Shown one piece after another: positions 4,669-48,063 of a stretch of 64,000 nt of DNA. Location of the stretch: positions 46,007-110,006 of the IMG/VR virus record IMGVR_UViG_3300028886_000029; one strand, written 5' to 3'. The position numbers and the translations under genes were made by a program. The number at the start of each line of letters is the position of its first letter. Position 1 is the first letter of the stretch. Source of the stretch: a virus (taxonomy: Duplodnaviria > Heunggongvirae > Uroviricota > Caudoviricetes). A model generated the notes under the pieces. It did no database searches. It was not told the DNA's origin and saw nothing but the letters and a program-made list of their open reading frames with translations.

Positions 4669-4690
4669 AATATGCTATGTTAATAAAAAA

Positions 4691-5433: not shown

Positions 5434-5440
5434 GATATTA

Positions 5441-17877: not shown

Positions 17878-18056
17878 GTGTTGATGACAAAAGATTTACC
17901 GCTGCTGTAAACGCAATGCAAGGTATTTTGGAAAGTGGTACATTTGGTACCGCATTGGAGGCCGCTCCAAAAATTGTTGCCAAATTATCAATTAGAATGG
18001 CTGACGCATTAATAACTGAATTGGAAAAAGGAGAACAGAATGCCGTTAAGGAATGA
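17874..18056 (+). CDS. Small hypothetical protein
   Basis: 60-aa ORF, overlapping start/stop with neighbours. Confidence 0.3.
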   Translation: MSVDDKRFTAAVNAMQGILESGTFGTALEAAPKIVAKLSIRMADALITELEKGEQNAVKE

Positions 18057-25484: not shown

Positions 25485-27125
25485 ATGATTGACAAAAATA
25501 ATGAGATATTCAAACGCGTTTGCGGTGACGGTTTTGAACCGTCACCCTCACAGTTGGAAATATTCAATTTCGTGAAATACGGAATAGGTAACGGTTCCAT
25601 TGAGTCAAGGGCAGGAAGTGGCAAATCCAAAACCATAGAACTGTCAACTTATTTCATACCGTCAAGTAAAAAAGTCTTGATATTGGCATATAATGTCCAT
25701 ATAGCGAACAATCTGAAACAAAAACTAAAACCACTGAGTAATGTGGTGGTTTACACATATCACAGTTTGGGCTACAGATTGTTGACATCAACATTAAACA
25801 AGGAAATTAAAGTGGATGAAAACAAATACATAAGATATATCAACACACATATTAGTGAACTCCTTGGAAATTTTGACGATTTTTCAAATGCGGAAAAAGG
25901 TAGATATATTAAAAATTTGGAAAAGCTATTGGACTACTCAAGGTACAACCTGATGCAATCAGAAAAAGAAATCGCTAAAATGGCTGTAAAATACGGTGTG
26001 AAAACCTTTTCAAACGAATGTGAAGTTGTGAGAAAACTAATGAAATGGGGATGTGAGAATACGGATTGTGTTGACTATACGGATATGATTTGGCTTCCAT
26101 ACGAAAAAGGCATAGTCACCGCCAATTATTTCAAATTTGATTATCTTTTTATTGATGAGGCACAAGACTCATCTTTGGCTCAACAACACCTTATTGATTT
26201 CTGTATGAAAAGAAACTCAAGGTTTTTCCTGTTCGGTGACAGTTTCCAAATGATTAACGCTTGGGCAGGAAGTGATGAGGATGCTTTCAAAACCTTTAAC
26301 AAAAGAGCCAATGTCAAGAAATTCGTGTTGAACATATCTTATAGATGTCCTAAGACAATCGCTGAGAAAGCAAGGGAAATCGTGCCTGATTTTGAGGCAT
26401 ATTCCAATGCCATAGAAGGAAGCATTAATTATAATGTGAGCCTGTCTGAAATCAAACCAGGTGACATGGTTTTATGTAGACTTACGGCACCATTGGTTAA
26501 ACTCTATCTTAACCTGATTGACAAGAATGTCCCTGTATATATAAAAGGTGTGGAAATCGGAAAAGAATTCATTAACAGCATCAACTCTTTCCAAACCGAT
26601 GACTTGGATAAAGTTAAATTGTCACTTAAAGAAAACCTGGTGAAAACATGGGAAGATGTCGCTGAACTATACCAAACCGACTTGAAAAGTGTTGTGGGTG
26701 AGTCAGATGTAGTGACAATATATGATGAGATTCTTACATTGGATTTGTTGTCGGAAGGTGTTAATGACAAAAATGAACTGATAAACAAAATCAAGACACT
26801 ATTTATTGACAAACCAAAAAATATCAGTTCTGAAGATAAAAACTTCGTGCATTTGTCCACAGTCCATAGGGCGAAAGGTTTGGAGAATGACAATGTGTTC
26901 ATATTATGTCCATCTTTGATGCCAAACAAACTGGCCAAAAAAGATTGGGAAATAATATCTGAAAAGAACTTGGTGTATGTGGCTTGGACAAGGGCGAAAA
27001 AAACATTGAATTTTATTAGTGAGAAAGAATTTCCACCGGATAAAAGTTATTCAGGTACTGATGTGCTTTATAAGGAATTAAACGCTATAAGAGAAAATGT
27101 CAAAGAACAGATTTATGAGACCTGA
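25485..27125 (+). CDS. Superfamily 1 (UvrD/PcrA-like) DNA helicase
   Basis: Walker A GNGSIESRAGSGKSKTI; FDYLFIDEAQDSS (motif II); ISYRCPKTIAEKA; LSTVHRAKGLENDNVFIL; VYVAWTRAKKTL (motif VI). Confidence 0.8.
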   Translation: MIDKNNEIFKRVCGDGFEPSPSQLEIFNFVKYGIGNGSIESRAGSGKSKTIELSTYFIPSSKKVLILAYNVHIANNLKQKLKPLSNVVVYTYHSLGYRLLTSTLNKEIKVDENKYIRYINTHISELLGNFDDFSNAEKGRYIKNLEKLLDYSRYNLMQSEKEIAKMAVKYGVKTFSNECEVVRKLMKWGCENTDCVDYTDMIWLPYEKGIVTANYFKFDYLFIDEAQDSSLAQQHLIDFCMKRNSRFFLFGDSFQMINAWAGSDEDAFKTFNKRANVKKFVLNISYRCPKTIAEKAREIVPDFEAYSNAIEGSINYNVSLSEIKPGDMVLCRLTAPLVKLYLNLIDKNVPVYIKGVEIGKEFINSINSFQTDDLDKVKLSLKENLVKTWEDVAELYQTDLKSVVGESDVVTIYDEILTLDLLSEGVNDKNELINKIKTLFIDKPKNISSEDKNFVHLSTVHRAKGLENDNVFILCPSLMPNKLAKKDWEIISEKNLVYVAWTRAKKTLNFISEKEFPPDKSYSGTDVLYKELNAIRENVKEQIYET

Positions 27126-27430: not shown

Positions 27431-28594
27431 ATGAAGGATAGTAATTTTAAAAATTTGAGGCTTGACCAAACAATGTCAAGCGTTTACAATGAGGTTGACG
27501 GTCTGTCATTGCAGAACCTTTTCTACACCAACAACGGCTACTTCCCCAATTGTTATATGTTCACCAAAGACTATAAGAACAATGACAAGTATTTTGATGT
27601 GGCAAAGTTCTTCGATTTTCTGAAAGAGAAATATAATGAAGAAGAGATGTCTTACATTCAATATGTGACACATAACATTGACACTAAGGAAGATAATTTC
27701 GGTTTCTGTATCCAACTGCTCAAAGAAAACATCTACGCAAGGTTTGAGAAACAGATAAATGAGTCTTATATTCTTTATGGCCATGACAATGTTGAGTCAC
27801 TTAAAAACTTCACGAACTTGCTGTATGACTTTTATGTCTCACCTGAGGAGGAAAAAGGTAACATTTGGAAAATCGCGCAGTCTTCCGCTGGTTTTTACCT
27901 TCAAAAAAGCAAAATCAAGGAAGTTAAGAACTTTTCCATAGAAAGACAATATAATGATGATTTCGCCCATGAGGATGAGAAAATCAGAAGGTTTGTCGCT
28001 GATAAGGATAAAAGTGGTCTGATTATCCTTCATGGAGAAAAAGGCACAGGAAAAACAACTTATATCAGGAACCTTATTAACACGAACCCAGATAGAAAAT
28101 TTGTGTATGTCACACCTGACTTGGTTCCCCTTCTTGGACAACCTGCCTTTACGACCTTCATTAACACACTTAATGACCATATCGTGATTCTTGAGGACTG
28201 TGAGGAAGTTATCAGGGACAGGAAAAACACAGGCATGACCTCAGGTGTGTCAACCATACTTAATATGTCTGACGGTCTCCTTGCTGATGACCTTGGCATT
28301 AAATTCATTTGCACGTTTAACGCTGATGTCAATGATATTGACAGTGCCCTTATGAGGAAAGGCAGACTTGTGAGCAAGTATGAGTTCAAACCACTTACTG
28401 TTGAGAAAACAAACAATCTTCTTGAATTTATTTATAGTGAAAAAGCGAAGGAGGAGGATAATGAGGATGAGAACGGAATACCTGAACTTCCTAAGGATTT
28501 TGTCGCACCACACTCAAATAAGGGTCTTACCCTTGCCGACATTTATAACTATGAGGATGACTCATATATTAAGGAAAGAAAAAAGATTATTTAA
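27431..28594 (+). CDS. AAA+ ATPase
   Basis: Walker A GEKGTGKTT, Walker B HIVILEDCEE, Arg finger region ALMRKGRL. Confidence 0.75.
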   Translation: MKDSNFKNLRLDQTMSSVYNEVDGLSLQNLFYTNNGYFPNCYMFTKDYKNNDKYFDVAKFFDFLKEKYNEEEMSYIQYVTHNIDTKEDNFGFCIQLLKENIYARFEKQINESYILYGHDNVESLKNFTNLLYDFYVSPEEEKGNIWKIAQSSAGFYLQKSKIKEVKNFSIERQYNDDFAHEDEKIRRFVADKDKSGLIILHGEKGTGKTTYIRNLINTNPDRKFVYVTPDLVPLLGQPAFTTFINTLNDHIVILEDCEEVIRDRKNTGMTSGVSTILNMSDGLLADDLGIKFICTFNADVNDIDSALMRKGRLVSKYEFKPLTVEKTNNLLEFIYSEKAKEEDNEDENGIPELPKDFVAPHSNKGLTLADIYNYEDDSYIKERKKII

Positions 28595-28644: not shown

Positions 28645-29562
28645 CTAAGCATCAACCCTTGTCCAACCATTTGGAATACCACTTGTACCTGTTTTTGATG
28701 ACCAATCGGTAGTTGATGGGGTGACAAATGTACCTGTTGATGTTTGGACACCTTGTACCCAATACATTGTATAATCACTTGCTGATATATCTGTGGCAAG
28801 ACATTTAATATAATTAAGATTAGTACAACCTTGGAACATACTACTATAACAATAATTTGCCAATGTAGTAGCAGGAAGTTCAGGCGCGGTGGTAAGGCTT
28901 GTACAACCATAGAACATACTACTATAACAAATCTTTGCTAATGTTGTTGCAGGTAACTGTGGTGCTGTTGTTAGACTTGTACAATCTTGGAACATACCAT
29001 TATAACAACTTTCTGTTAATGTAGTTGCAGGTAACAGTAGTTTACTTGCATCAGTTAAACCGGTACAAGCAGCAAATAAGATATAAAATGTATAATCACT
29101 TTCGAATGTGGTCAGTCCACTGAAATTAGTTGAGTTAATCAAAGACATTATATTACCCTTAACCTTGAATTGTGCAGTACTACCGCTGAATGTGTTATAA
29201 TAAGATGATGTGCCATATGTGGTGTTATTTCCACGGAACTGTAAGGTGTCACCTGACACAACTGATATACTTGGTACTGATGAGCCGGTATTACTTGTAA
29301 TGGATGTCCATGTCGCACCATTATCTTTACTATATTCAATGGTTTTAGTTAATGCGGTGTTACGTGCATTCCAAACAATATTACCGCCACCCGTTATCTC
29401 AAATGTAAGTGGTGTCTCAAGTAAACCAAAAGGCCACTTTTCTTTATTATAATCAACTTTGGTATTTTCCTCAGTATAAGATACCCAAGGCTCAAGATAA
29501 TTATTATTTCTTGCCGTTGTATATTCGGTAACTGTGTCAAATTTGTGGATGTATCTACTCAT
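28645..29562 (-). CDS. Tail-fibre paralog with LRR-like (BspA/DUF285-like) LPATTL-CY..MF..C repeat domain; start moved to MSRYIHKF
   Basis: Start MSRYIHKFDTVTEYTTARNNNYLEPWVSYTEENTKV aligns with the N-terminus of 36035..37309. Repeats LPATTLTESCYNGMFQDCTSLTTAPQ / LPATTLAKICYSSMFYGCTSLTTAPE / LPATTLANYCYSSMFQGCTNLNYIKCLATDISA. The track ORF's extra 24 hydrophobic codons are probably not translated. Confidence 0.65.
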   Translation of the reverse strand: MSRYIHKFDTVTEYTTARNNNYLEPWVSYTEENTKVDYNKEKWPFGLLETPLTFEITGGGNIVWNARNTALTKTIEYSKDNGATWTSITSNTGSSVPSISVVSGDTLQFRGNNTTYGTSSYYNTFSGSTAQFKVKGNIMSLINSTNFSGLTTFESDYTFYILFAACTGLTDASKLLLPATTLTESCYNGMFQDCTSLTTAPQLPATTLAKICYSSMFYGCTSLTTAPELPATTLANYCYSSMFQGCTNLNYIKCLATDISASDYTMYWVQGVQTSTGTFVTPSTTDWSSKTGTSGIPNGWTRVDA

Positions 29563-29689
29563 AATTAATTTAGTAATTTTACTTGTTATTATAATAATAA
29601 ATATTTTAACAATAAGGAAAATCATCATCCTCACGAAAAATATTCCTTATTATTTTTACCATTGTTTTTGTTTTTCTGCATGATTTTTA

Positions 29690-29697
29690 TATATTTG
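29690..29697 (+). promoter_or_regulatory. TATATTTG -7-like element
   Basis: TTTTTATATATTTGTAAAAAAG in the divergent intergenic region; near-identical to the motifs before 30988 and 32736. Confidence 0.3.
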
Positions 29698-29945
29698 TAA
29701 AAAAGTAAAAATATTATTATGAAAACATTTAACGACATCGGTTACCGTTATTGTGGGCAGTCTGTGTGTGGTGTACTTTGTAGTGACTAAAAACATAATT
29801 AAAAAAGAAAAATAAATTATGGACAAAACAGAAGACAACATTAAAATTCTTGATGGAATTGATTTCACAAAATATATTAACAATATTAAAAAAGGTTACA
29901 ATGTCCGAAATTTTTTTGATGCCATTGAAAACAGAAGCCCCCAAC

Positions 29946-29963
29946 TTTAAGTGGGGGTAGTTC
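29946..29963. other. GC-rich hairpin (GCCCCCAACTTTAAGTGGGGGT) in an AT-rich intergenic region
   Basis: CCCCCA/TGGGGG stem. Contains the stop of a 43-codon ORF (29820..29951). The C5 run is also where an alternate frame continues. Confidence 0.35.
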
Positions 29964-30114
29964 ACATAACACAGAAATAACTAATAATGACATACTTGAA
30001 GGTTATATTTTCAATTGGCTGTCAGAAATGGAACAAATTGAATATTTTGAGAAAAGATATCCTGAAAGTTTTAAGGTTACCGAGTATACACAATACATAT
30101 TTTGTTAGAAACAA

Positions 30115-30963
30115 ATGAGAAAAATAAACACATTGATAATACCTGATGTCCATTGCAGGGATTTTTGGAGAAAACCTGTATATGACACACTGTCTAATCA
30201 CCCTGAGTCCGATATAGTGTTTTTGGGTGATTATCTGTCACCATACCCATTTGAATGGGATGGTTACGACACATTTACCGGTACATGGGACAACAAATTA
30301 AGAAAAGAGTGTTTGGACAATGGTTTTGAATATCTTAAGGAAATAATTGATTTAAAGAAACAAAATCCAGAAAGAATCCATTTGTTAGTTGGTAATCATG
30401 ATGGTTGTTGTATTGGACCCCTTAGTGTTTGTGAATGCCGTTATGACTATGAGAACCAAGGAAGAAATATCAGTCTTTACTGTAAAAATCAGGAACAGTT
30501 TCAAATTTGTTTTCAGAAAAAAATAGGTGGTAAGGATTTTTTGTTCTCACACGCAGGTATAACTGACGGTTGGCTAAAGTCCCATGATTTAAAGGCTGAT
30601 AATATATGTGACTTTATTAACAACAAATACTTTTTATCATTTAAAGATGATGAGGAATACCTACAATTTTGGGCTTTAATGAAAGAAATGTCATATAGCA
30701 GGGGTGGTTATGACCGTTATGGTAGTCTAATATGGGCTGATGTAAATGAGCACTATTTTGAGTTGTCCAATCCTGATTTTGAAAGCAAATTGAATTATGT
30801 GCAAGTTTTTGGTCACACATATTTGAAAAATTTTGCCATTAACCTTAAAAACCAAAGATACTGTGTTGATTTGAGAACAGCTTTTTATTGTGATGACGAA
30901 GGTAATGTGAAATACTATGACAACAACGAAATTGTTCTTGATTATTTTGCTTTAAAAAAATAG
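30115..30963 (+). CDS. Calcineurin-like metallophosphoesterase
   Basis: IPDVHCR (DxH), FLGDYLS (GDxxD), VGNHDG (GNHD/E), FSHAG, FGHT motifs in canonical order. Confidence 0.75.
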   Translation: MRKINTLIIPDVHCRDFWRKPVYDTLSNHPESDIVFLGDYLSPYPFEWDGYDTFTGTWDNKLRKECLDNGFEYLKEIIDLKKQNPERIHLLVGNHDGCCIGPLSVCECRYDYENQGRNISLYCKNQEQFQICFQKKIGGKDFLFSHAGITDGWLKSHDLKADNICDFINNKYFLSFKDDEEYLQFWALMKEMSYSRGGYDRYGSLIWADVNEHYFELSNPDFESKLNYVQVFGHTYLKNFAINLKNQRYCVDLRTAFYCDDEGNVKYYDNNEIVLDYFALKK

Positions 30964-30968
30964 TTTTA

Positions 30969-30976
30969 TATATTTG
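30969..30976 (+). promoter_or_regulatory. TATATTTG (TAnnTTTG) -7 element 12 nt upstream of ATG 30988
   Basis: TTTTATATATTTGTAAAAAAAAAGATG. Confidence 0.4.
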
Positions 30977-30987
30977 TAAAAAAAAAG

Positions 30988-31566
30988 ATGAAAACAGTAC
31001 TTACAAGTGATTTTGAAAAAGAATGGACTACCTTTTATAATAATATAAGAGAGGTAGGTCTTGACAGGTTCTATGACATTGAGACACTGAAAGCACAATT
31101 GAAAATTGCGTCATGTGCCTTAAGTGATGACACAGGATGCGCATATCCTGGTGCGTTAATTGTTCACATTAATCTGATAACTGCGTTGGCAACAAGAATT
31201 GCGAAAATGATTAGTGGGACATTTAATATAAACACCATCTCATTGTTAAGGGTATGTTTGCTTATGCATTTGTCAAAAATAGAGATGTTTGAGCCTAATG
31301 ACAACCAATGGGAAATTGACAAGAGAGGTTTGAATTACAAATTCGCCGAAACTGAGGGTAAGTTGAAGTTCGGTGAGAGAAGTATCCTTAACGCCATGAA
31401 CAGGGGCATAACCTTGTCAGCGGAAGAATTTGAAGCTATCAGATGTCTTGACAAGGAAAATGAAGAAAAAGGTGGTAAATATTTTGAATGCGTATTGGCT
31501 ACAGTTGTGAGACAGGCAAACGAGCTTGCGTATGCCATTGAAAAGGAAAAGTACAAAAGAATTTAA
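30988..31566 (+). CDS. Hypothetical protein, possibly a divergent HD-like domain
   Basis: GALIVHINLITALATRIAKM ... LLMHLSKIEMFEPND loosely resembles the H...HD...D arrangement but with HL in place of HD. Confidence 0.35.
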   Translation: MKTVLTSDFEKEWTTFYNNIREVGLDRFYDIETLKAQLKIASCALSDDTGCAYPGALIVHINLITALATRIAKMISGTFNINTISLLRVCLLMHLSKIEMFEPNDNQWEIDKRGLNYKFAETEGKLKFGERSILNAMNRGITLSAEEFEAIRCLDKENEEKGGKYFECVLATVVRQANELAYAIEKEKYKRI

Positions 31567-31586
31567 ATTTTTAAAAAACATTTATT

Positions 31587-32429
31587 ATGAAGAGAATTTT
31601 TTGCTTTTTGGCCATGGTTATGGCGATGTTTACAGTAAACAGTTGTTCTTTGTCAACTGTTGATGGTGATGAGGAAGGTGTGTTTATCATGAAGCCCATG
31701 TTTTTCGGACATGGTGGTGTTCAGGAAAGGGCACTTACGCAAGGTTCGGAGTGGAGAGTATGGACAACAAGTTTTGTCAGGTACAAGAAAATCCCTGTCA
31801 AATATACCGAACAGTTTGATGATGTTTTCTGTGATGACAACACACCACTTGATTTGAGCGCGCATATCACACTTAAAATTAAGGACGGTAAGTCACCGAT
31901 TCTACACAAGAATTACGGTACTGATTGGTATAACAATAATGTTAAAGAAAATTTCAGAGAAATTGTTAGAAACTTTATCAGTACATACAATATGTATACA
32001 CTTGTTTCTGATAGGGAAGTATATGACCAAGTAAAACTTGATATTACTCAGAAGATGCAAGCATATTTTGACAAACTTAACGGTATCGCTGAATTTCCAA
32101 TTGAGATTGTGAACGTTGTTGTGGACAAGGCTAAGCCGAACGATATGGTTCTTGAGGAACTTAACAAGACCGCTGCCATGGCTCAGCAGAAAATCACTCA
32201 GGAAAGACAACAGGAAATGGAGGAGCAACGTGCCATTACCGAACAAAAAAGGGCTTATGCTGATAAGTCATATATGAACTCAATGGGATTGTCCTCTGAC
32301 GCTTTTATCAAACTAAGATATGCTGAGATTGAGTTGGAGAAAGTTGAGATGATTAAGAACAAGGAAAATGTGAATGTGGATGTTCTTCTTGGCAATTCCA
32401 CACAAATGTGGGACATTAAGCAAAAGTAA
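31587..32429 (+). CDS. SPFH/band-7 (stomatin/HflKC-like) lipoprotein
   Basis: Lipoprotein signal MKRIFCFLAMVMAMFTVNSC. C-terminal LEELNKTAAMAQQKITQERQQEMEEQRAITEQKRAYADK is typical of SPFH coiled-coil tails. Confidence 0.55.
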   Translation: MKRIFCFLAMVMAMFTVNSCSLSTVDGDEEGVFIMKPMFFGHGGVQERALTQGSEWRVWTTSFVRYKKIPVKYTEQFDDVFCDDNTPLDLSAHITLKIKDGKSPILHKNYGTDWYNNNVKENFREIVRNFISTYNMYTLVSDREVYDQVKLDITQKMQAYFDKLNGIAEFPIEIVNVVVDKAKPNDMVLEELNKTAAMAQQKITQERQQEMEEQRAITEQKRAYADKSYMNSMGLSSDAFIKLRYAEIELEKVEMIKNKENVNVDVLLGNSTQMWDIKQK

Positions 32430-32435
32430 AATATA

Positions 32436-32669
32436 TTGATTATGTTTTGGATTGTTCTTTTTATTGTTATTTTGATTGTGGGGTGTTTTACCACATGGCA
32501 CTATGCTGAGCACCATGAGTTACATAAGGTGAGAGCGGAGTTCGAACATCGTTTGGTTGACTTGGGACCAAGTAGCAGATTCAGACAGGGACTTGAACTT
32601 GCTGAACATGTTGTTGAGGAAATGGACAAGGACTTTAACGGTGACTATGTTGAAAATGTCTCAGAATAA
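32436..32669 (+). CDS. Small single-TM membrane protein (possible NfeD-like partner of the SPFH protein)
   Basis: MIMFWIVLFIVILIVGCF hydrophobic N-terminus; immediately downstream of the SPFH gene. Confidence 0.35.
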   Translation: MIMFWIVLFIVILIVGCFTTWHYAEHHELHKVRAEFEHRLVDLGPSSRFRQGLELAEHVVEEMDKDFNGDYVENVSE

Positions 32670-32692
32670 TCTGAGACATTTTTGTTTTTCGG
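32655..32692 (+). terminator. Rho-independent terminator
   Basis: ATGTCTCAGAATAATCTGAGACAT hairpin followed by TTTTGTTTTT. Confidence 0.55.
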
Positions 32693-32703
32693 CACGATTT
32701 TTG

Positions 32704-32711
32704 TATATTTG
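32704..32711 (+). promoter_or_regulatory. TATATTTG -7 element upstream of 32736
   Basis: TTTTGTATATTTGTAATTGTAACAAAAGTAAAAAAACATG. Confidence 0.4.
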
Positions 32712-32735
32712 TAATTGTAACAAAAGTAAAAAAAC

Positions 32736-32960
32736 ATGAAAACATTTACACTTGACGCGTTTAAAGAAACACTTATTAATAACAGTGAGTTTAAAAATGA
32801 CATTATCTCTCATCAGGATTTCATTGATTTGGACAATGGCGTTATGAGAATTTATTCAGAAAATGTCAACAAGTACCTTGAGAAGTACTCATGCAAAAAC
32901 ATAGAAGACCTTGAGGATACTTTGTATTATGACTACGGTATTTTTTGTCAGGTTATTTAA
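32736..32960 (+). CDS. Small hypothetical protein
   Basis: 74-aa ORF. Confidence 0.35.
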   Translation: MKTFTLDAFKETLINNSEFKNDIISHQDFIDLDNGVMRIYSENVNKYLEKYSCKNIEDLEDTLYYDYGIFCQVI

Positions 32961-32970
32961 AGAAAAAAAA

Positions 32971-34164
32971 ATGAAAGCATCAGATTTAATTGATTTTACC
33001 AATTGTTCTATAAATTGGGAAGCGGTAGAGCAGGTTCCTGAATTTGCCGTTTTGAAAAACTGTGAGCAAAATCCTAAATGGCATAGTGAAGGCGATGTCA
33101 TGACACATACTATGAAGGTTTGTGATGTTGTCATTGACATGATACTAAATTGGAGGGGAAGATGTTTAGCCGCTGAGATTGAGGACGCTGATGTTCTTTT
33201 GACTGCCGCCCTTTTTCATGACATCGGTAAAGGCGTAACCACAAAAATAGGTAAGGATGGTAATTGGCACAGTTATGGTCACGAATTTGAGGGTGAGAAA
33301 ATAACAAGAAGATTGTTATGGGATGAGGATTTGTCTTTTAGGGAAAAAGTATGCGCGTTAGTTAAATACCACATGCTTCCACTTAATATAATCAAACATA
33401 AGAACTATATAGAGGAGATTATAAGGTTGTCTTGTCAAGTCAATCTGTTGCAACTATATAGACTTAAATATGCTGACTGTATGGGGTCTGAACATAGTTC
33501 TGAAATCAAGTGCGATGAAATGAGAATTTTAAACCATTTCACTAGGTTGGTTGATTTTTTAAAACTTTCAGAGACTAAGCCATATTTTTGTAACAAGTAT
33601 CTTTTTAATCTTAATGATTATGAACTTAACATCAAAAAACCAAGTGTTAATTTGTTCATGATGATTGGTTTGCCTGGTTCAGGAAAAAACACCCTTATTG
33701 ATGATTTGTTTGATGATAATAAAACAATAACGTTGTATGACGGTGATGAGTTTCTATATAGGTTCCAAGAAGGGAAGACTGAAATCCTGTCAAGGGATGA
33801 TATTAGAGCAGAATTGGGATTTTGCGCTGATGGTCAAAAAATTGTCGGCACAAAGGAACAGGAAGATAAGGTAACCGAAATTTTCAACCAAAGAATGTTA
33901 CATGCGGCATCATGTGGCCATGATATTGTTATCAATAACATAAACCTTAAAAAGAAATACAGGGAAGAAATAGTTAACACACTCTCAAAAGAGTATAACG
34001 TTATAACCGATTACTTATATGTTGAGGCTAAGGGTATCGAAAAAAACATTGAAAGAAGAAAAAATGACGGTTTCAGTAAAGAGACATTTGAAAAAATGAT
34101 TGAGAACTTTGACTGGCCAGATTTTTTTGAGTGTGGTAATAATTTATACATTTTTAGAAATTAA
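32971..34164 (+). CDS. Bifunctional HD-domain phosphohydrolase / P-loop (AAA_33, polynucleotide-kinase-like) kinase; start moved to MKASDL
   Basis: N-terminal domain: HSEGDVMTHT...ALFHDIGKG...GH...KYHMLP (HD motifs as in CCA-enzyme/cyclic-phosphodiesterase HD domains). C-terminal domain: MMIGLPGSGKNTLIDDLF Walker A. Confidence 0.6.
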   Translation: MKASDLIDFTNCSINWEAVEQVPEFAVLKNCEQNPKWHSEGDVMTHTMKVCDVVIDMILNWRGRCLAAEIEDADVLLTAALFHDIGKGVTTKIGKDGNWHSYGHEFEGEKITRRLLWDEDLSFREKVCALVKYHMLPLNIIKHKNYIEEIIRLSCQVNLLQLYRLKYADCMGSEHSSEIKCDEMRILNHFTRLVDFLKLSETKPYFCNKYLFNLNDYELNIKKPSVNLFMMIGLPGSGKNTLIDDLFDDNKTITLYDGDEFLYRFQEGKTEILSRDDIRAELGFCADGQKIVGTKEQEDKVTEIFNQRMLHAASCGHDIVINNINLKKKYREEIVNTLSKEYNVITDYLYVEAKGIEKNIERRKNDGFSKETFEKMIENFDWPDFFECGNNLYIFRN

Positions 34165-34219
34165 CTATGGACAGTTTAAATACAGAATGATTTATTCCGA
34201 AGATTTTTATTAATGAAAA

Positions 34220-34227
34220 TATTTTTG
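34220..34227 (+). promoter_or_regulatory. TATTTTTG -7-like element upstream of 34271
   Basis: ATATTTTTGTTTATTTGTAAAAAAAAAATG. Confidence 0.3.
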
Positions 34228-34270
34228 TTTATTTGTAAAAAAAAAATGAGTACAATTAAAATTTTGAAAC

Positions 34271-35488
34271 ATGACAATTGACTATCTTAGAGAAAATAAC
34301 CTAATCGCATACGAATATATTAGAGGTTCACATGCATATGGTACATTTACTGAAACCAGTGACAAGGACATTGGTGGCGTTTTTATTTGCCCTGAGACCG
34401 ATTTGTACGGTTTAAGAGACAAATATGTTGAACAAGTCAATGATGAAAAATCTGATGTCGTTTTTTATGAGTTGGGAAGGTGGGTTGAGTTACTTCTTAA
34501 ATCAAACCCCACATCCATGGAGTCATTGTTTATTCCTGATGATTGCATTATAGGTGATATACATCCTGCCGTGCAACATATTCTTAATCATAAGGAAGCC
34601 TTTTTAACTAAACAATGCCTCAATCCTATTTTGGGATACGCGTTTCAACAACTGCAAAAAGCAAGTGGATATAACAAGAAATGTAACATACCTGAGGATT
34701 TCCAAAGAAAAGATATTCTTGATTTTTGTTATACCTTTAAAAATCAAGGTAGCCAACCAATAAAGGAATTTCTTGATGAATACCATCTTGACCAAAGATA
34801 TTGTGGCCTTGTTAACATACCCAACATGAAAGACACCTATGGTGTGTACTATGATTTTGCTGCTTATTTTAAATTTGAGGGTATTGATTGGTACTGCGCT
34901 GATTTTCAGATTGAAGGTGTTAAGTATCCTTTTTGTAGAATAATTGGTGAAGGTATGGACAAACAGTCCATCATAGACAGAATCAACAATAAAGAGTTTT
35001 TCCATTACTCAGGTATTGTTTATCCGGATGAGATTACCAAATCAAATGAGGTTAGATTGTCATCAATACCTAAGGGTGAACTGCCCATTTGTTATATGGT
35101 ATATAATAAGGACGCATATACCAAACACTGTAAAGATTACAAGGATTGGACAGAGTGGAAAAAACATAGAAATCCTGTGAGATATGAAAACAATAGAGGT
35201 TATAACTATGACAGCAAAAACTTCCTTCACATGATTAGACTAATGGAAATGGGTGTTGAACTTGCTGAGGGTAAGGGATTTAATGTCAGAAGAACAGGTG
35301 ATGATGTCAAACACCTTCTTGCCATAAGAAATCATGAGTTCTCTTACGATGAGGTGATGGCTGAGGCGACATTGTTAAAAAACAAGTTTGATGAAGCCGT
35401 GAAAACAACAAAACTTCCAAGTGAAATTAATGTTGACTTCGTTAATAATCTTTTGCTGGAAGCAAGAAAAATAGCATACAAAAAATAA
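34271..35488 (+). CDS. Pol-beta-superfamily nucleotidyltransferase, RlaP-like (RNA-ligase-associated predicted NTase)
   Basis: YIRGSHAYGTFTETSDKDIGGVFICP matches the GS..YG....SDxD NTase signature at the N-terminus of a ~400-aa protein. Confidence 0.55.
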   Translation: MTIDYLRENNLIAYEYIRGSHAYGTFTETSDKDIGGVFICPETDLYGLRDKYVEQVNDEKSDVVFYELGRWVELLLKSNPTSMESLFIPDDCIIGDIHPAVQHILNHKEAFLTKQCLNPILGYAFQQLQKASGYNKKCNIPEDFQRKDILDFCYTFKNQGSQPIKEFLDEYHLDQRYCGLVNIPNMKDTYGVYYDFAAYFKFEGIDWYCADFQIEGVKYPFCRIIGEGMDKQSIIDRINNKEFFHYSGIVYPDEITKSNEVRLSSIPKGELPICYMVYNKDAYTKHCKDYKDWTEWKKHRNPVRYENNRGYNYDSKNFLHMIRLMEMGVELAEGKGFNVRRTGDDVKHLLAIRNHEFSYDEVMAEATLLKNKFDEAVKTTKLPSEINVDFVNNLLLEARKIAYKK

Positions 35489-35494
35489 AAGCAT

Positions 35495-35944
35495 ATGGAT
35501 ATTTTAGAGAAAAAAGAAATTAAGGAAATAATGGAGAAAATAGAAAATTTGACTCCATGGGACAAAGCCGACTTTTTAGATGTGTTAACTGACAACATCA
35601 TTGATGATTATGAGTTTGACGAACAAACCACATTAAAAGAACGCGGTTATCTTAACGTGAATGATACTGACGAAATCGAAGATTACATCAAAGAAAACTA
35701 TACCGATGGTGAATTGCTTGATTTGGTTAATTCTGACTACGATGTAGTCGAATATGTGTTGAGTAATGGCCTTGCGTCTGATGTTTTCGATGAACTTGAT
35801 GCTGATGACATTGTGGATTTGGTTTCGAAAAAAAGACATGGTGTTGGTGACTGTCTTGACGAATTATTCGACAACTACAAGACAAGAGAAGAAGCTGTGG
35901 ACTGGCTTTCTAAAAGAATAGAGAGGACTTTTTTGAAGGACTAA
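35495..35944 (+). CDS. Highly acidic hypothetical protein (possible DNA-mimic/anti-restriction-type protein)
   Basis: 149 aa with very high Asp/Glu content throughout. Confidence 0.4.
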   Translation: MDILEKKEIKEIMEKIENLTPWDKADFLDVLTDNIIDDYEFDEQTTLKERGYLNVNDTDEIEDYIKENYTDGELLDLVNSDYDVVEYVLSNGLASDVFDELDADDIVDLVSKKRHGVGDCLDELFDNYKTREEAVDWLSKRIERTFLKD

Positions 35945-36034
35945 AAGTTTTAAAAAAACCAAAGAATATTTTTCGTGAGAGTAGTGATTTTTCCTTATTA
36001 TTGTAATATTTAATATTATAATAATAAGGAAAAA

Positions 36035-37309
36035 TTGTTAAATTATATGGGAGAAGTAAAAGAATACATCCATTTATTTGAAACTGAAAACGAATATAAT
36101 ACAAAAAGAAATTTTGATTATCTTGAGCCTTGGGTAAGTTATACTGAGGATAACACCAAGGTTAATTATAATATGACTGAGGAAGAAAGAAAATTCTCAA
36201 CACCGCTTACATTTGAAATAACAGGTGATGGTGATATTTATTGGAAAGCAAAATCAGATAACAGTTTACGAACAATAGAATACAAAAAAAACGATGAGGA
36301 TTGGGTAACAATCACCTCAAGCACTGGTGGTACCTCTATCACGGTGTCGTCAGGCGATACAGTGCTTTTTAGAGCACCGCAAGGTGTTACATATACAACA
36401 TTAAGTGACACATATGAAAAAGCTAATTTTTTTAGCGGTTGTACTTGCACTTTCAACGTTAAAGGTAATGTTATGTCACTGCTTGACGCAAATAATTTCA
36501 GCACGATGTCCTCGTTGACAGCTTCCTTGGTTTTTACTTGTTTGTTCAGGTATTGTACGGGTTTGACTGATGCAAGTAAACTTATTTTACCGGCAGATAA
36601 CTTGACCGTTGAATGTTATAGGGAAATGTTCGCAAATTGTTCAAACCTTGTTGGTGTGCCTAAACTACCTGCAATGAACCTCGGTGAAGGTTGTTACAAC
36701 GGTATGTTCCATGATTGTACAAATCTTACCACAGTACCTGAACTACCTGCGACAACATTAGCAAGTAACTGTTATGATTTTATGTTTGCGTCTGACACTG
36801 GTTTAACTGACGCAAGTGGGTTAGTATTACCTGCAACAACATTAGCAAATAATTGTTATAGTCAGATGTTCAGGGGTTGTACAAGTCTAACAACAACACC
36901 TGAATTACCTGCGACCACATTAGCTAATAGATGTTATTATTATATGTTCAGGGAATGTACAGGCTTAACCACTGCACCTGAGTTACCTGCGACTACATTA
37001 GCTGATGGTTGTTATTATAGGATGTTCTATGGTTGCACAAGTCTTACAACCGCACCTGAGTTACCTGCAACAACATTAGTAAATGAATGTTATAGAGGTA
37101 TGTTCGGATGGTGTACTGAACTTAATTATATTAAATGTCTTGCTACTGATATATCAGCAACTGATTGTACATTGGATTGGGTAGAAAGTGTGGCATCATC
37201 AGGTACATTTGTTGCGGCAAATGACGGTGTTGATTGGACAATAGGTGTTAACGGTATACCTGTTAATTGGAATAGAATAAATGAAAAATCCCAACCTTTA
37301 ACATTTTAG
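36035..37309 (+). CDS. Tail-fibre paralog with LRR-like LPATTL repeat domain (7 repeats); ends at an in-frame TAG
   Basis: Domain GNVMSL...LPADNLTVECYREMFANCSNL.../LPATTL...CY..MF..C..L.../NYIKCLATDISA...GIPVNW shared with 28645..29562 and both copies in the giant fibre. Confidence 0.65.
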   Translation: MLNYMGEVKEYIHLFETENEYNTKRNFDYLEPWVSYTEDNTKVNYNMTEEERKFSTPLTFEITGDGDIYWKAKSDNSLRTIEYKKNDEDWVTITSSTGGTSITVSSGDTVLFRAPQGVTYTTLSDTYEKANFFSGCTCTFNVKGNVMSLLDANNFSTMSSLTASLVFTCLFRYCTGLTDASKLILPADNLTVECYREMFANCSNLVGVPKLPAMNLGEGCYNGMFHDCTNLTTVPELPATTLASNCYDFMFASDTGLTDASGLVLPATTLANNCYSQMFRGCTSLTTTPELPATTLANRCYYYMFRECTGLTTAPELPATTLADGCYYRMFYGCTSLTTAPELPATTLVNECYRGMFGWCTELNYIKCLATDISATDCTLDWVESVASSGTFVAANDGVDWTIGVNGIPVNWNRINEKSQPLTF

Positions 37310-38071
37310 ATAACTAATGACGGTATAATCTATTGGGGGACACTGGGCACCGGTTTTACCAGAACTATTGAGTATAGTAAAGATAATGGCTCAACATGGA
37401 CATCCATAACTTCCACAAGAGGTGAAACACTTATACAAGTTGTTTCAGGTGACACCTTACAATTCCGTGGAAATAACGCAAATTATGCAACATATCCTTC
37501 AGGGGGAAAAAAAATATCATTTAACGGATTCATGAGTAGTACGGCAGGATTCAAAGTAAAAGGTAATATAATGTCGTTGATTAATAGTATTAATTTTGGT
37601 ACATTAACCACATTGGAAAATGCTTATACATTTTATGGATTATTTACTCATTGTACAGGTTTAACCGATGCAAGTGAACTACTGTTACCTGCAACAACAT
37701 TGACACAGAGTTGTTATGGTAGTATGTTCCAAGGTTGTGAAAGTTTAACTACAGCACCTTCGTTACCTGCAACTACATTAACAGAAGGCTGTTATTATGA
37801 AATGTTCATTGGTTGTACAAATCTAACCACAGCACCTGAATTACCTGCAACAACATTAACAGATTATTGTTATTATCAGATGTTCGAAGGTTGTACAAAT
37901 CTTAACTATATTAAATGTCTTGCAACTGATATATCAGCAAGTAATTGTACATATAATTGGGTAAATAGTGTAGCAAGTACAGGTACATTTGTTAAACACT
38001 CATCAATGGCATCTTGGACAACAGGTACAAGTGGTATTCCGACAGGTTGGACAGTACAGGATAATGTTTAG
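37310..38071 (+). CDS. Second tandem fibre-domain unit continuing in the same frame after TAG 37307-37309 (first ATG only at 37532); split gene, readthrough product or pseudogene
   Basis: Frame is open from 37310. ITNDGIIYWGTLGTGFTRTIEYSKDNGSTWTSITS... aligns to the N-terminal part of the paralog domain (PLTFEITGGGNIVWNARNTALTKTIEYSKDNGATWTSITS). The TAG sits at the conserved Glu of PLTF-E-ITG. Confidence 0.5.
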   Translation: MTNDGIIYWGTLGTGFTRTIEYSKDNGSTWTSITSTRGETLIQVVSGDTLQFRGNNANYATYPSGGKKISFNGFMSSTAGFKVKGNIMSLINSINFGTLTTLENAYTFYGLFTHCTGLTDASELLLPATTLTQSCYGSMFQGCESLTTAPSLPATTLTEGCYYEMFIGCTNLTTAPELPATTLTDYCYYQMFEGCTNLNYIKCLATDISASNCTYNWVNSVASTGTFVKHSSMASWTTGTSGIPTGWTVQDNV

Positions 38072-38097
38072 GTTAACAAACAATAAAAGACAAAAAA

Positions 38098-38135
38098 AGA
38101 GAGATAGGTATCTATCTCTCTTTTTCTTTTCTTTT
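38098..38135. terminator. Bidirectional terminator
   Basis: AGAGAGATAGGTATCTATCTCTCT palindrome followed by TTTTTCTTTTCTTTT. Confidence 0.6.
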
Positions 38136-38847
38136 AGATTTCAAATTCAAGTGGCAGATATTTTGGCTTATAATGTTCATCAATATATGAGACATTTGCC
38201 ATCATAGTGCCATTGACATCCTCAAAGTTATGGTTTCCACTATGGATATGGCCGCTGAAAAAATATTTCGGTTTTCGTTGTTTTATGTACTCATCAAGCA
38301 CCTCATTTCCAGCGTCATAACCATTGTTCCAACCTTGGTTAATGGTTCCCAATCCATTTATTGATGGGGAGTCATGTGAAATCACAATATCACAATCGTA
38401 AGGCATTTCGTTATAATAATATCCAAGTTGCTCATCATTAACCATGAAAGCCCAATTACCGAATATTTTACAATACGGTGTCCCAAATATTTTTAGTGTC
38501 TCAATACCGTTATCGGTCAGATACTCATAATCGTATGTGTTATTGTTCAATATAACAACCCTGTTTTTTGTTTTTTCGTTGAATATATGCAAATCCTCCT
38601 CATGAAGTCTTTTGCCAACGTAATCATGGTTACCCCAAATCATCACAACTTTACTCCATTCGTTTTTAAATGGAAGTGTGTTTATCCAATCAGCGAAATC
38701 AGTTTTAAACCACTCTGATTGAAATGAGTAGTAATGACTATGTGCTGGACAATTATCACCACATATAAGAAACAAATCAAATGGTGATATAATCACCGGT
38801 AAATTTCCGTGTAAATCACTGGTAACGATTACCTTTAATTTTCCCAT
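38134..38847 (-). CDS. Calcineurin-like metallophosphoesterase (second copy of the family in this window)
   Basis: TSDLHGN (DxH), CGDN (GD), WGNHD, ISHDSP, SGHIHSG (GHxH). Confidence 0.75.
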   Translation of the reverse strand: MGKLKVIVTSDLHGNLPVIISPFDLFLICGDNCPAHSHYYSFQSEWFKTDFADWINTLPFKNEWSKVVMIWGNHDYVGKRLHEEDLHIFNEKTKNRVVILNNNTYDYEYLTDNGIETLKIFGTPYCKIFGNWAFMVNDEQLGYYYNEMPYDCDIVISHDSPSINGLGTINQGWNNGYDAGNEVLDEYIKQRKPKYFFSGHIHSGNHNFEDVNGTMMANVSYIDEHYKPKYLPLEFEI

Positions 38848-38980
38848 ATACTAATATTTTTTTTTCTTTATACTTTTTTAGGGAATGATATACTTGTTTG
38901 CACAAGATTTACTATCTTAACGTTTACTTTCGATTCCGTTCATAGCCCCACTTCCCGATGGGGATTCCATTTATTTATTA
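38848..38980. ncRNA. Putative guide-RNA scaffold (tracrRNA/omegaRNA-like) region at the 3' end of the TnpB/Cas12f-like gene
   Basis: GC hairpin CCCCACTTCCCGATGGGG (38946-38963) immediately followed by ATTCCATTTATTTATT (38964-38979), which is complementary to the ATAAATTAAATGGAAT part of the CRISPR repeat. Overlaps the gene's stop codon. Strand and extent unknown. Confidence 0.3.
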
Positions 38981-40131
38981 TTAATTTCTTCTATTTTTTG
39001 TTCAATGCCAATTAATGCCTGTGGATGTAACCCCATGTTCTTAATATTAATTGCTGCATTTACATCTCTATCATGATGTTCACCACATATTGGACATATC
39101 CATTCTCTATCAGATAACTTCAGTTCCTTGTCAATGTATCCACATTTGTTACATGTCTTACTACTTGGTTCATATCTACCAATGAATACAATGTTCTTTC
39201 CACACCATTCACACTTGTATGTCAATTGTCTAACAAATTCATTCCATGCAACACTATTTATACTCTTTGCAAGATTATGATTCTGTGTCATACCAGTAAT
39301 GTTAAGATTCTCCATACAAAATGTGTCATATTCACCATTAATCAACATGGTTGTTAACTTATGAAGAAAATCATTTCTTCTGTTAGCAATTTTTCTATGT
39401 AACTTTGCTACATATAATTTTGCTTTTTCATGACGTTTACTATTTTTTTGTGTTCTGGAAAGCCATTGTTGTGCTTTTGCTAACTGTTGTTGTTTTGCTT
39501 CAAGATACTTAGGATTTCCGTACTTTGTACCGTCAGATAGAATTGCATAATCTTTAACACCTAAGTCAATGCCAACAGTTTTTTCCTCACATATCTTGGT
39601 TTTCGATACGTTTGGTTTATTGTCATCAACTACTATGGTACACCAATAATCACCACATTTATCTTTTGTAACAGTTAAAGTACCCAATTTTACTGTGTTT
39701 ACATCAAATTCGCAATTTTTAAGAAATTTAACTTTACCTATACATGGCACTGATACTCTCATGGTTTCAAAATCAAAGTGAACAGCAGCAATGTATTTAA
39801 CAGAATCAACACTATTTTTCTTTGATTTAAATTTAGGAAAGCCTTTTTTTGCTTTAAAGAATCTGGTATAGGCATTATCAAGGTTTCTAAGTGATTGTTG
39901 TAGACAAACGTTAGCACATTGTTTCAGCCAATCATGTTCACCGTCTTTTTTAAGTAAAGTAAGTTCTTTGGCCAGTTGTATATATGTAACATTTTTATGT
40001 TCCTTTTCCCAGGTTTCTTTTTTACGATTAAGTCCCCAATTATAGATAAAGCGAGCATTACCAAAGGCTTGTGAAAACAATTTTTGTTGTTTCACAGTTG
40101 GTTTAAGTTTATATTTATATGCTCTTGTCAT
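38971..40131 (-). CDS. TnpB / Cas12f-like RuvC-fold RNA-guided endonuclease candidate (IS605 OrfB family), 386 aa
   Basis: N-terminal MTRAYKYKLKPTVKQQKLFSQAFGNARFIYNWGL (TnpB hallmark). RuvC-I GIDLGVKDYAILSDG, RuvC-II TFCMENLNITGM, zinc finger CNKCGYIDKELKLSDREWICPICGEHH, RuvC-III DRDVNAAINI. Catalytic D/E/D all present. Confidence 0.75.
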   Translation of the reverse strand: MTRAYKYKLKPTVKQQKLFSQAFGNARFIYNWGLNRKKETWEKEHKNVTYIQLAKELTLLKKDGEHDWLKQCANVCLQQSLRNLDNAYTRFFKAKKGFPKFKSKKNSVDSVKYIAAVHFDFETMRVSVPCIGKVKFLKNCEFDVNTVKLGTLTVTKDKCGDYWCTIVVDDNKPNVSKTKICEEKTVGIDLGVKDYAILSDGTKYGNPKYLEAKQQQLAKAQQWLSRTQKNSKRHEKAKLYVAKLHRKIANRRNDFLHKLTTMLINGEYDTFCMENLNITGMTQNHNLAKSINSVAWNEFVRQLTYKCEWCGKNIVFIGRYEPSSKTCNKCGYIDKELKLSDREWICPICGEHHDRDVNAAINIKNMGLHPQALIGIEQKIEEINNK

Positions 40132-47859: not shown

Positions 47860-48063
47860 TCAAAAATCATGACAGAAAATTTCAGAATTGTCAAAAATTA
47901 TTTCTAATTTATATATCATTGACAAACTACAATGTTCCCTTGCCATGTGTTTTTCGGTTTCAAATTGAATATTATCAATTTCTTCGGCGTTCGAACCAAT
48001 ATAAGTCAATGTTTGGTCACTATAATAAGGGTCAACTGCGGTATATTTAACTATTCTCTTCAT
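47860..48063 (-). CDS. Small hypothetical protein
   Basis: 67-aa ORF, start adjacent to the stop of the ligase gene. Confidence 0.3.
   Translation of the reverse strand: MKRIVKYTAVDPYYSDQTLTYIGSNAEEIDNIQFETEKHMAREHCSLSMIYKLEIIFDNSEIFCHDF

Follow-up and report, generated by a model that had tools for sequence, protein, structure and literature searches.

We examined a 64,000-nucleotide stretch of a Caudoviricetes virus record (IMG/VR IMGVR_UViG_3300028886_000029, positions 46,007 to 110,006; hereafter the window) and found genes for three enzymes, HD-Pnk, RlaP and an ATP-dependent RNA ligase, that likely form a pathway for mending RNA breaks, the most plausible substrate being tRNA cleaved by anticodon nucleases of the host. 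An earlier note on this DNA had proposed a dispersed gene set for RNA healing, tip repair and sealing that also took in two metallophosphoesterases (MPEs). The HD-Pnk, RlaP and ligase components of that set hold, but a repair role for the two MPEs is conjecture, as they are not of the MPE families found in the repair clusters of relatives. All open reading frames (ORFs) named in that note are present where it had placed them, and an independent gene call on a 112,376-bp metagenomic contig that includes the window (ENA ERZ27256887 k141_2525523) gave the same gene boundaries. The three core genes are:

32971-34164, plus strand: HD-Pnk, 397 aa, with an HD phosphoesterase at the N-terminus joined to a P-loop 5'-OH polynucleotide kinase at the C-terminus; predicted core healing enzyme.
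34271-35488, plus strand: Pol-beta nucleotidyltransferase of the RlaP family, 405 aa; suggested to restore 1-2 nt at the 3'-OH of damaged RNA.
48063-49655, minus strand: ATP-dependent RNA ligase, 530 aa, with an N-terminal OB domain, a C-terminal nucleotidyltransferase (NTase) domain and no C-terminal appendage; predicted sealing enzyme.

The first of these had been described as an HD phosphohydrolase fused to a polynucleotide-kinase-like domain, and profile searches bear this out. Pfam HD covers residues 65-141 (E=8e-11) and AAA_33 residues 228-381 (E=8e-10); phrog_6931 extends across the full length and phrog_505, "polynucleotide kinase", also matches. Full-length homologs with the same two domains are numerous (552 matches, mostly 40-47% identical, many on contigs of 100-400 kb). 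Both the HD metal-ligand set (H38, H46, H83-D84, H100, H104, H134 and D169) and the kinase set (G233..K239/T241, R275-D276..R279 and R362-R363) are invariant in 28 homologs. The SRDDIR motif of the kinase is the counterpart of the motif that in T4 Pnk supplies the general base and binds phosphate. In profile searches of the PDB, the HD half finds its best match in the HD domain of the Aquifex A-adding/CCA enzyme (E=2e-10); in bacterial CCA enzymes this domain reportedly acts as a 2',3'-cyclic phosphodiesterase and as a phosphatase (Yakunin 2004). Matches of the kinase half are PSTK (9e-9), Capnocytophaga Pnkp1 (3e-5), CthPnkp (7e-5) and T4 Pnk (1.5e-4). Zeta toxin, which the earlier note had raised as an example of a competing identity, gives a non-significant E=0.055, so that identity falls away and placement of the predicted kinase in the polynucleotide-kinase/PSTK branch, rather than the zeta-toxin branch, is supported.

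Judged from its domains and motifs, the protein shares the architecture of Runella slithyformis HD-Pnk. That enzyme has been characterised as a 2',3'-phosphoesterase and 5'-OH kinase whose gene adjoins a ligase gene (PMC6097658). Fusions of this kind are rare in a deposited phage collection, where they match 34 of 50,697 records; among cultured phages they occur almost only in Campylobacter CP8-like phages, labelled as polyA polymerase or 5' kinase/3' phosphatase. A profile scan of genome contigs, in which generic P-loop and HD patterns swamped the result, gave three distant full-length bacterial matches (L003, L004 and L007; contigs and loci are labelled L with a number throughout).

The second enzyme had been recognised by a GSHAYG...SDKD signature as an RlaP-like nucleotidyltransferase. 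PF10127 confirms the family (E=6.6e-17; 62.5 bits vs a gathering cut-off of 23, the Pfam model covering the first 130 residues only), and phrog_388 matches the full length (residues 13-401, E=5e-42). Both parts of the signature, G19-S20-HAYG and S30-D31-K-D33, were found. In an alignment of 17 homologs G19, S20, D31, D33 and D62 are invariant, and R300, R304, K316, R323 and R341 form a conserved basic set. A structural study places three strictly conserved, catalytic Asp residues in the Pol-beta NTase core of RlaP (PMC12776372); by alignment these correspond to D31, D33 and D62. According to that study, RlaP adds 1-2 nucleoside monophosphates to the 3'-OH of damaged RNA, with tRNA function restored after repair, and is proposed to replace nucleotides excised by RloC-type nucleases before 5'-phosphate ligases seal the break (PMC12776372). 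Homologs with 43-74% identity are found on IMG/VR contigs of 93-411 kb, and others in Prevotella Lak megaphages and Tenacibaculum phages; the family matches 231 of the 50,697 deposited phage records. On four contigs (L080, L089, L110 and L121, at ~8.2-10.7 kb in each) ORFs for an RlaP-type NTase and an HD-domain protein touch or overlap one another, which suggests that RlaP-HD gene pairs or fusions, reminiscent of CCA-adding enzymes, exist in several IMG/VR contigs.

The third enzyme had been called an Rnl2-type RNA ligase on the basis of its motif I, with no mention of its minus-strand position. It is an RNA ligase (phrog_968, E=9e-34; PF21189 OB domain at residues 16-67, E=3e-6; PF09414 at E=4e-4, under its cut-off) and it has the motif, K244-V-H-G-T-S. 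The nucleophile lysine of KxHG, which we take to be the T4 Rnl2 form of motif I, is invariant in 25 homologs, where motifs III (Y327-G-E329), IV (R487-E488-G489) and V (K504xK506) are likewise kept, invariant or nearly so. Membership of Rnl2 was rejected, since the NTase domain is C-terminal and no Rnl2-type helical domain follows it; the chain ends ~24 residues past motif V. Profile search of the PDB returned a single family, Naegleria NgrRnl, the Rnl5 prototype, via the N-terminal OB domain. An AF2 model (pLDDT 83.6) aligned with NgrRnl over its full length in Foldseek (E=3e-13, TM 0.67); only its NTase domain aligned with T4 Rnl2 and REL1 (E=1e-6 to 1e-5; TM 0.27-0.42 for T4 Rnl2). Rnl5 enzymes are defined by an N-terminal domain, a C-terminal NTase and no C-terminal appendage (PMC4408790). 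Because the modelled ligase has an N-terminal OB domain, a C-terminal NTase, no appendage and a full-length match to NgrRnl, its predicted architecture is that of Rnl5, not Rnl2.

The resemblance to NgrRnl and DraRnl, the Rnl5 enzymes, thus lies in the domain order and in the best PDB profile and fold matches. The window ligase differs from them in length (530 aa vs ~340), in sequence (~15% identity), in helical insertions within the OB (~67-117) and NTase (~447-483) domains, and in motif I (KVHG vs KLDG in NgrRnl; PMC4408790). Against TIGR02306, the curated DraRnl family, it scores 18.6 bits with a cut-off of 151, and we therefore file it under the PHA02142 clade of Rnl5-like ligases rather than as a DraRnl equivalog. 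It matches 379 of the 50,697 deposited phage records. For the ligase, for RlaP and for the first of the neighbouring MPEs (MPE1), single-sequence PDB searches gave nothing useful and a profile or fold search was needed.

Linkage of the three genes was followed by looking up the contigs of homologs and by scanning IMG/VR. Compact arrangements were found as follows:

L151 (113-kb IMG/VR contig) and L070: Rnl, 71-aa ORF, DUF932, 94-aa ORF, HD-Pnk, an unknown protein of 326-347 aa, a tRNA-ligase CPD-like protein, CCA-adding enzyme, RlaP.
L071 (388-kb contig): MPE, AAA, ligase, HD-Pnk, CCA enzyme, RlaP, second ligase fragment, Thg1.
L152, L153, L074, L075 and L162, and also L068: subsets of these clusters.

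The run from Rnl to RlaP lies on one strand in L151 and L070 and measures 8.5-10.5 kb; an MPE gene on the opposite strand and a leucine-rich-repeat (LRR) gene follow. Relatives with the compact one-strand cluster have HD-Pnk proteins 37-45% identical to that of the window. Between HD-Pnk and RlaP (11325-13998 in L070, 7087-9823 in L151) lie the unknown gene (326 and 347 aa, respectively), the CPD-like gene (143 aa; tRNA-ligase CPD, E=4e-7) and the CCA enzyme gene, all three of which are missing from the window. In L068 the corresponding place after HD-Pnk (4688-5650) is taken by a 320-aa gene that matches no Pfam family.

The co-occurrence in related genomes that the earlier note had looked to is thus seen in L070, L071, L151 and others. 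The ligase gene lies at most 5 kb upstream of HD-Pnk in L070, L071, L074, L151 and L162, and at most 10 kb from RlaP in L070, L071, L151 and L152. Among viral loci found with the HD-Pnk profile, 20 of 78 carry this ligase type or RlaP within 10 kb; for full-length HD-Pnk at no less than 30% identity the figure is 9 of 11, with the two exceptions at contig ends. In distant viral contigs, the N-OB ligase stands immediately upstream of a kinase-only Pnk at eight loci (among them L141 and L142, which seem to be almost the same) and RlaP stands beside HD-only proteins at four. This distant linkage is partly independent of the close relatives. A functional link among HD-Pnk, RlaP and ligase is supported, because the genes form compact clusters in relatives and because the ligase and RlaP sit beside kinase-only and HD-only versions in distant contigs.

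The activities, RNA substrate and counter-defence role that we infer for the three enzymes would combine in the following way. HD-Pnk would heal the ends left by metal-independent ribonucleases, converting 2',3'-cyclic phosphate or 3'-phosphate and 5'-OH termini into 3'-OH and 5'-phosphate; the HD domain would strip the phosphate and the P-loop kinase would phosphorylate the 5' end. Where a nuclease had also taken a base, as RloC-type nucleases do, RlaP could rebuild the strand by adding 1-2 nt to the 3'-OH. The Rnl5-architecture ligase would then self-adenylylate on K244 and join 3'-OH to 5'-phosphate, probably in a base-paired, nick-like context.

Several observations weigh against this scheme. 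What Rnl5 ligases are known to do is close duplex nicks that have an RNA 3'-OH strand; no natural substrate has been assigned to the class (PMC4408790, PMC5397189), and it is not known to seal tRNA anticodon loops. PSTK, a tRNA-dependent Ser kinase, outscores the true polynucleotide kinases as a PDB match, and sequence alone does not fix the substrate of the kinase. Its Walker A motif is GLPGSGKNT (G233xxGxGK239-N-T241) rather than GK[ST]; across the family the motif reads GK[D/N/S]T, with an invariant Thr one position later. Neither tRNA genes nor Rfam RNAs, in a search that included Y-RNA and other structured RNA partners, were found in the 64-kb window. The ligase gene is ~12.6 kb from RlaP and ~14 kb from HD-Pnk, on the opposite strand. 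With respect to linkage, a full-length HD-Pnk occurs within 10 kb at only 3 of 11 RlaP-anchored viral loci, RlaP and a Pnk are ~250 kb apart on one 355-kb contig, and much of the synteny comes from one phage lineage and is not independent.

Runella HD-Pnk reportedly acts on DNA ends too (Munir and Shuman 2017) and heals DNA 3'-phosphate, which also counts against an RNA-specific pathway. The same three enzymes could serve a broader purpose, mending breaks in nucleic acids of any kind (DNA carrying ribonucleotide patches, RNA:DNA hybrids, phage transcripts or genome ends), rather than undoing tRNA cleavage. The window does have genes of DNA metabolism, a UvrD helicase (25485-27125) and an exonuclease-like gene (18040-18903). 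Moreover, an RNA 3'-OH strand at a duplex nick is all that Rnl5 ligases require, and Deinococcus becomes more sensitive to ionising radiation, which damages DNA, when DraRnl is lost (PMC5397189, PMC4408790). We nevertheless consider such a general role unlikely: the clusters of relatives hold tRNA-specific enzymes (CCA-adding enzyme, Thg1 and the tRNA-ligase CPD-like domain), and RlaP acted on RNA only among E. coli macromolecules (PMC12776372). Repair of cleaved tRNA is the reading that we prefer.

Around the core genes lie several others:

28645-29634, minus strand: divergent BspA/LRR paralog, left arm of an inverted repeat (right arm at 36035-38071, plus strand), identified from the inverted repeats and protein paralogy.
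30115-30963, plus strand: MPE1, PPP-like metallophosphoesterase, 282 aa (Metallophos, E=1.8e-6).
30988-31566, plus strand: orf192, 192 aa, HD-like fold (AF2 model and Foldseek).
31587-32429, plus strand: SPFH/Band-7 lipoprotein (PF01145, E=6e-17; phrog_200 "lipoprotein", E=4e-27).
32442-32669, plus strand: ORF of 75 aa with a hydrophobic N-terminus by eye.
32736-32960, plus strand: acidic ORF of 74 aa directly upstream of HD-Pnk.
35495-35944, plus strand: acidic ORF of 149 aa (44 D+E, pI 4.08) starting 6 nt after RlaP.
38134-38847, minus strand: MPE2, MPPED2/class-III-PDE-like metallophosphoesterase, 237 aa (Metallophos, E=3.9e-13).
42932-43792, minus strand: DUF932 protein (PF06067, E=1.8e-24).

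Both MPEs are what the earlier note took them to be by family, the second on the minus strand, which had gone unstated. MPE1 has the family motifs DxH, GDY, GNHD, SHAG, RGG, WAD and GH, and its best PDB profile matches are the Shewanella PPP-type phosphatase 2z72, PP1 and calcineurin. MPE2, with DLH, GD, GNHD, SHD and GHIH, best matches MPPED2 (3rl4, E=3e-6); its gene is convergent with the HD-Pnk/RlaP block. The MPEs in the clusters of relatives are of an "MPE227" type in L071, L072 and L162, and of a 280-301 aa type directly after RlaP in L070 and L151. Orthology of MPE1 or MPE2 with these (L070, L071, L072, L151, L162) was rejected, as no similarity was detected at E<0.1. A repair role for either is therefore conjecture. 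Homologs of MPE1 do lie near repair genes in L154 and L162, and no other neighbour MPE family recurs in this way. In L068, the closest relative (HD-Pnk 94% and RlaP 99% identical), MPE1 is absent: resolvase and TnpB-like genes replace the MPE1-orf192-SPFH segment. In view of this replacement and of the non-orthology of the MPEs, we treat MPE1, MPE2, orf192, the SPFH protein and the small ORFs as neighbours with an unproven part in repair.

The orf192 protein had been suspected to be HD-like, and its modelled fold agrees: the AF2 model (pLDDT 94.4) is closest in Foldseek to the HD-domain RNase YhaM (E=9e-4, TM 0.66), followed by other HD hydrolases. The metal-binding residues do not. An alignment of 35 sequences has no invariant His or Asp; "HLSK" stands in place of HDxGK, and across the family the HD-equivalent position is H/Q/F/N followed by L/I. 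We therefore rejected orf192 as an active HD hydrolase, and on this alignment a metal-dependent phosphohydrolase is unlikely. The protein has no Pfam, PHROG or NCBIfam match, and Pfam HD matches none of the 35 family members. The family has 217 cluster representatives, and members of it are encoded within 10 kb of RlaP or Pnk in L087, L145 and L146.

An SPFH lipoprotein and a small transmembrane protein had been reported as embedded in the cluster. The first is upheld by PF01145; it has no homolog in the clusters of relatives and is probably unrelated to RNA repair. The second exists as the 75-aa ORF, its hydrophobic N-terminus being judged by eye only. That ORF has counterparts of 97% identity in L068 and L069, placed ahead of the 74-aa ORF and HD-Pnk; the 74-aa ORF, also at 97% identity, is kept with HD-Pnk in both. 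The 149-aa acidic protein, 99% identical in L068 and weakly matched by proteins encoded 5-7 kb beyond RlaP in L152 and L153, could be a nucleic-acid mimic or inhibitor. DUF932 lies between ligase and HD-Pnk in all five close relatives (L070, L151, L152, L153 and L162); the copies in the first four are 53-63% identical to that of the window, and the L162 copy was called by Pfam. Its position may reflect lineage synteny only, or it may be an unrecognised repair partner.

Two further candidates were rejected. The AAA ATPase at 27431-28594 shows no homology to the AAA gene of L071 and is not its counterpart. The Tpt1/KptA-like domain suggested at 17029-17877 (plus strand) was not borne out, with no Tpt1 match in Pfam, NCBIfam or PHROG; only weak signals of an ADP-ribosyltransferase-toxin fold were seen there (Tox-ART-HYD1, E=0.002, under its cut-off; DarT, E=0.26).

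The dispersal noted earlier is real within the window. It is probably secondary, a rearrangement of the compact layout, since relatives carry a compact cluster on one strand. The minus strand of the window keeps the order of the relatives: Rnl (49655 to 48063), a 70-aa ORF, DUF932 (43792 to 42932) and a 102-aa ORF (41591 to 41283). Extra genes, including a sigma-70 factor and an FGase-like gene, are inserted along this order, and TnpB and MPE2 follow it. Unlike the arrangement in L151 and L070, the HD-Pnk/RlaP block is reversed relative to ligase and DUF932 and lies on the plus strand. Inverted repeats of the LRR genes bracket this 6.3-kb block (~29,660-35,950); the longest, I1, is 450 nt with 79% identity, accompanied by I2-I20, and the repeats reach into the 5' regions of the LRR genes. 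The LRR gene that follows RlaP in L151 is closer to the left-arm gene of the window (58% vs 48%). The orientation of the block, opposite to that in L151 and L070, and the affinity of the L151 gene with the left arm suggest that the block may have been inverted by recombination between the LRR repeats. We put this forward with caution because the LRR genes are mosaic.

The sigma-70-family factor (45352-46215, minus strand) is complete, with regions 1.2, 2 and 4, and stands between ligase and DUF932, unlike in the relatives. A TnpB gene (IS605 OrfB/Cas12f-like; 38971-40131, minus strand) adjoins MPE2, and in L068 a different TnpB-like gene and a resolvase (1230-2870) lie directly upstream of the HD-Pnk unit. 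Mobile elements thus cluster at the variable edges of the module.

Signals that may govern transcription divide the array:

29665-29707, 30944-30986, 32679-32714 and 34203-34245, plus strand: promoter-like repeat TTTTTGTTTTTC.GCA.GATTTTT.TATATTTGTAA, core GATTTTTRTATATTTGTAA, 36-43 nt, found by pattern search and as direct-repeat families D5 and D6.
32651-32684, plus strand: terminator-like hairpin with a 15-bp stem and a T run, after the 75-aa ORF, separating the MPE1-SPFH unit from the HD-Pnk unit.

The motif has five matches in the window, where 0.41 were expected; the fifth is at 57857-57875 on the minus strand. The four plus-strand copies precede, respectively, a small ORF ahead of MPE1, orf192, the 74-aa ORF with HD-Pnk, and RlaP. 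The copies at 29.7 kb and 32.7 kb run into ORF starts, both encoding MKTF. The motif resembles the Bacteroidota -7 element, TAnnTTTG. With separate promoter-like motifs and the hairpin, the array probably comprises several transcription units, HD-Pnk and RlaP each behind its own promoter-like site. Where the LRR and MPE2 genes converge (38092-38127), a perfect palindromic hairpin of 14-16 bp with T and A runs on its flanks looks like a bidirectional terminator.

This organisation would also suit a collection of independent accessory or counter-defence genes that share no pathway, the phosphoesterases acting on proteins or cyclic-nucleotide signals and the kinase on a small molecule or tRNA-bound serine. 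MPE1 is PPP-like, MPE2 resembles MPPED2, a cyclic-nucleotide phosphodiesterase type, and neither is orthologous to the MPEs of relatives. The SPFH lipoprotein and the small hydrophobic ORF are interleaved in the array, which the promoter-like motifs and hairpin divide, PSTK is the best kinase match, and few RlaP-anchored loci have a full-length HD-Pnk nearby. Even so, we give this explanation little credence. Adjacency of ligase with Pnk and of RlaP with HD recurs in distant viral contigs with different domain fusions, the HD-plus-Pnk fusion couples two healing activities in one polypeptide, and all three enzymes have kept their catalytic residues.

A more elaborate proposal, which we regard as doubtful taken as a whole, has three parts. 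The module would exceed three enzymes, with DUF932, the 283-347 aa protein after HD-Pnk in relatives, orf192 and the PPP-like MPE1 as accessory factors, for example in substrate recognition or nuclease inhibition. The ligase would represent a distinct tRNA-adapted clade with Rnl5 architecture, Rnl2-type KxHG and new helical insertions. Finally, the HD-Pnk/RlaP cassette would be invertible between the LRR repeats.

Among known systems, the window set shares its logic with T4 Pnkp/Rnl1/Rnl2, in which anticodon-nuclease damage is undone by a 5' kinase, a 3' phosphatase and a ligase of the phage. The window kinase has the P-loop, RDD general-base motif and lid arginines of T4 Pnk (PDB profile match 1ly1/1ltq). 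The phosphatase is of HD type and not HAD as in T4 Pnkp, a contrast correctly drawn in the earlier note, and the ligase has an N-terminal OB domain where Rnl1 and Rnl2 have C-terminal domains instead. An RlaP, NrdC.11, is known from T4 as well (PMC12776372). Like other members of that family (PfRlaP/PaRlaP and NrdC.11), the window protein has an N-terminal Pol-beta NTase with GS and three Asp residues and a presumed C-terminal helical region, and is encoded with RNA-repair genes; it differs in its length of ~405 aa and in being paired with a 5'-phosphate ligase, not RtcB. With Runella HD-Pnk the window HD-Pnk shares the combination of HD phosphoesterase and P-loop 5'-OH kinase in one ~400-aa polypeptide whose gene lies near an ATP-dependent ligase gene (PMC6097658), together with the HD and kinase catalytic motifs. 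The window set differs in being viral, in a partner ligase that is Rnl5-like rather than Runella LIG, in a GKNT Walker A, and in having neither Tpt1 nor MTase-HIT neighbours. Clostridium thermocellum Pnkp-Hen1 and Capnocytophaga Pnkp1-Rnl-Hen1 have a homologous kinase domain (4gp7, 4xrp) and a heal-and-seal strategy, but there a metallophosphoesterase is fused to the kinase, the ligase is Rnl4 and a Hen1 methyltransferase takes part; no Hen1 was found among the window proteins scanned.

The closest precedent is the review of jumbo-phage systems by Iyer et al. (2021), in which RlaP tends to go with RNA ligases and, in a few phages, an HD or calcineurin phosphatase stands in for HAD (PMC7824862). 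Those systems likewise combine an ATP-dependent RNA ligase, Pnk, a phosphoesterase and RlaP, with CCA enzyme and Thg1 in the relatives of the window; the window differs in belonging to a lineage absent from the deposited phage set and in having a set pared to three genes. Since the scheme has already been laid out for jumbo phages (PMC7824862), the locus is a new example, not a new system, and leaves the current picture of RNA repair unchanged. Phage RNA repair is a known counter to host nucleases that shut down translation. The locus extends the combination of HD-Pnk, RlaP and N-OB ligase to an uncultured lineage, probably of gut Bacteroidota phages. Of modest interest are the combination of Rnl5 architecture and an Rnl2-type motif I in the ligase, the conservation of DUF932 between ligase and HD-Pnk, the degenerate HD-fold protein and the possible invertible cassette. 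The compact three-gene set suits reconstitution, in which the natural substrates of Rnl5 ligases and the rebuilding of excised nucleotides by RlaP before ligation could be addressed.

With its endolysin-like gene (12767-13567), BACON domain, promoter-like motif and IMG/VR relatives, the window probably derives from a large phage whose host is likely a gut Bacteroidota bacterium. Megablast of 30000-38900 against deposited phages gave no nucleotide match, and the nearest deposited proteins are 39-40% identical for RlaP (uncultured huge phages and Prevotella Lak megaphages) and 28-31% for the ligase; with protein identity of at most 40%, this phage lineage has no close relative in the deposited collection. 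A plasmid, integrative element or chromosomal island of Bacteroidota, with the module serving cellular stress-response RNA repair like Pnkp/Hen1 or RtcAB, is a very improbable source. Genes for capsid, terminase or tail proteins were not found in the 64 kb of the window, which does encode proteins common on mobile elements (TnpB, a GmrSD-like enzyme, an EcoRI-type methylase, OmpA, giant GH2 and BACON proteins and DUF932), and HD-Pnk homologs occur in bacterial genomes too. However, IMG/VR viral contigs carry the nearest homologs of RlaP and HD-Pnk, the contigs of relatives have a T4 gp19-like gene and the dense one-strand layout of small ORFs typical of large phages, the endolysin-like gene is present, and no plasmid replication or conjugation genes were seen in the window.

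Two giant ORFs lie on the minus strand in the left part of the window: one of 2035 aa (6248-12355) has a GH2 glycosidase core with chitobiase C-terminal domains, and one of 1578 aa (19880-24616) has BACON repeats. Both are unusual cargo and point to a Bacteroidota host. On the same strand, a GmrSD-N plus HNH protein (54975-56360) adjoins an EcoRI-type adenine methyltransferase (56419-57681; E=7e-110), and homologs of both are found upstream of DUF932 in L152.

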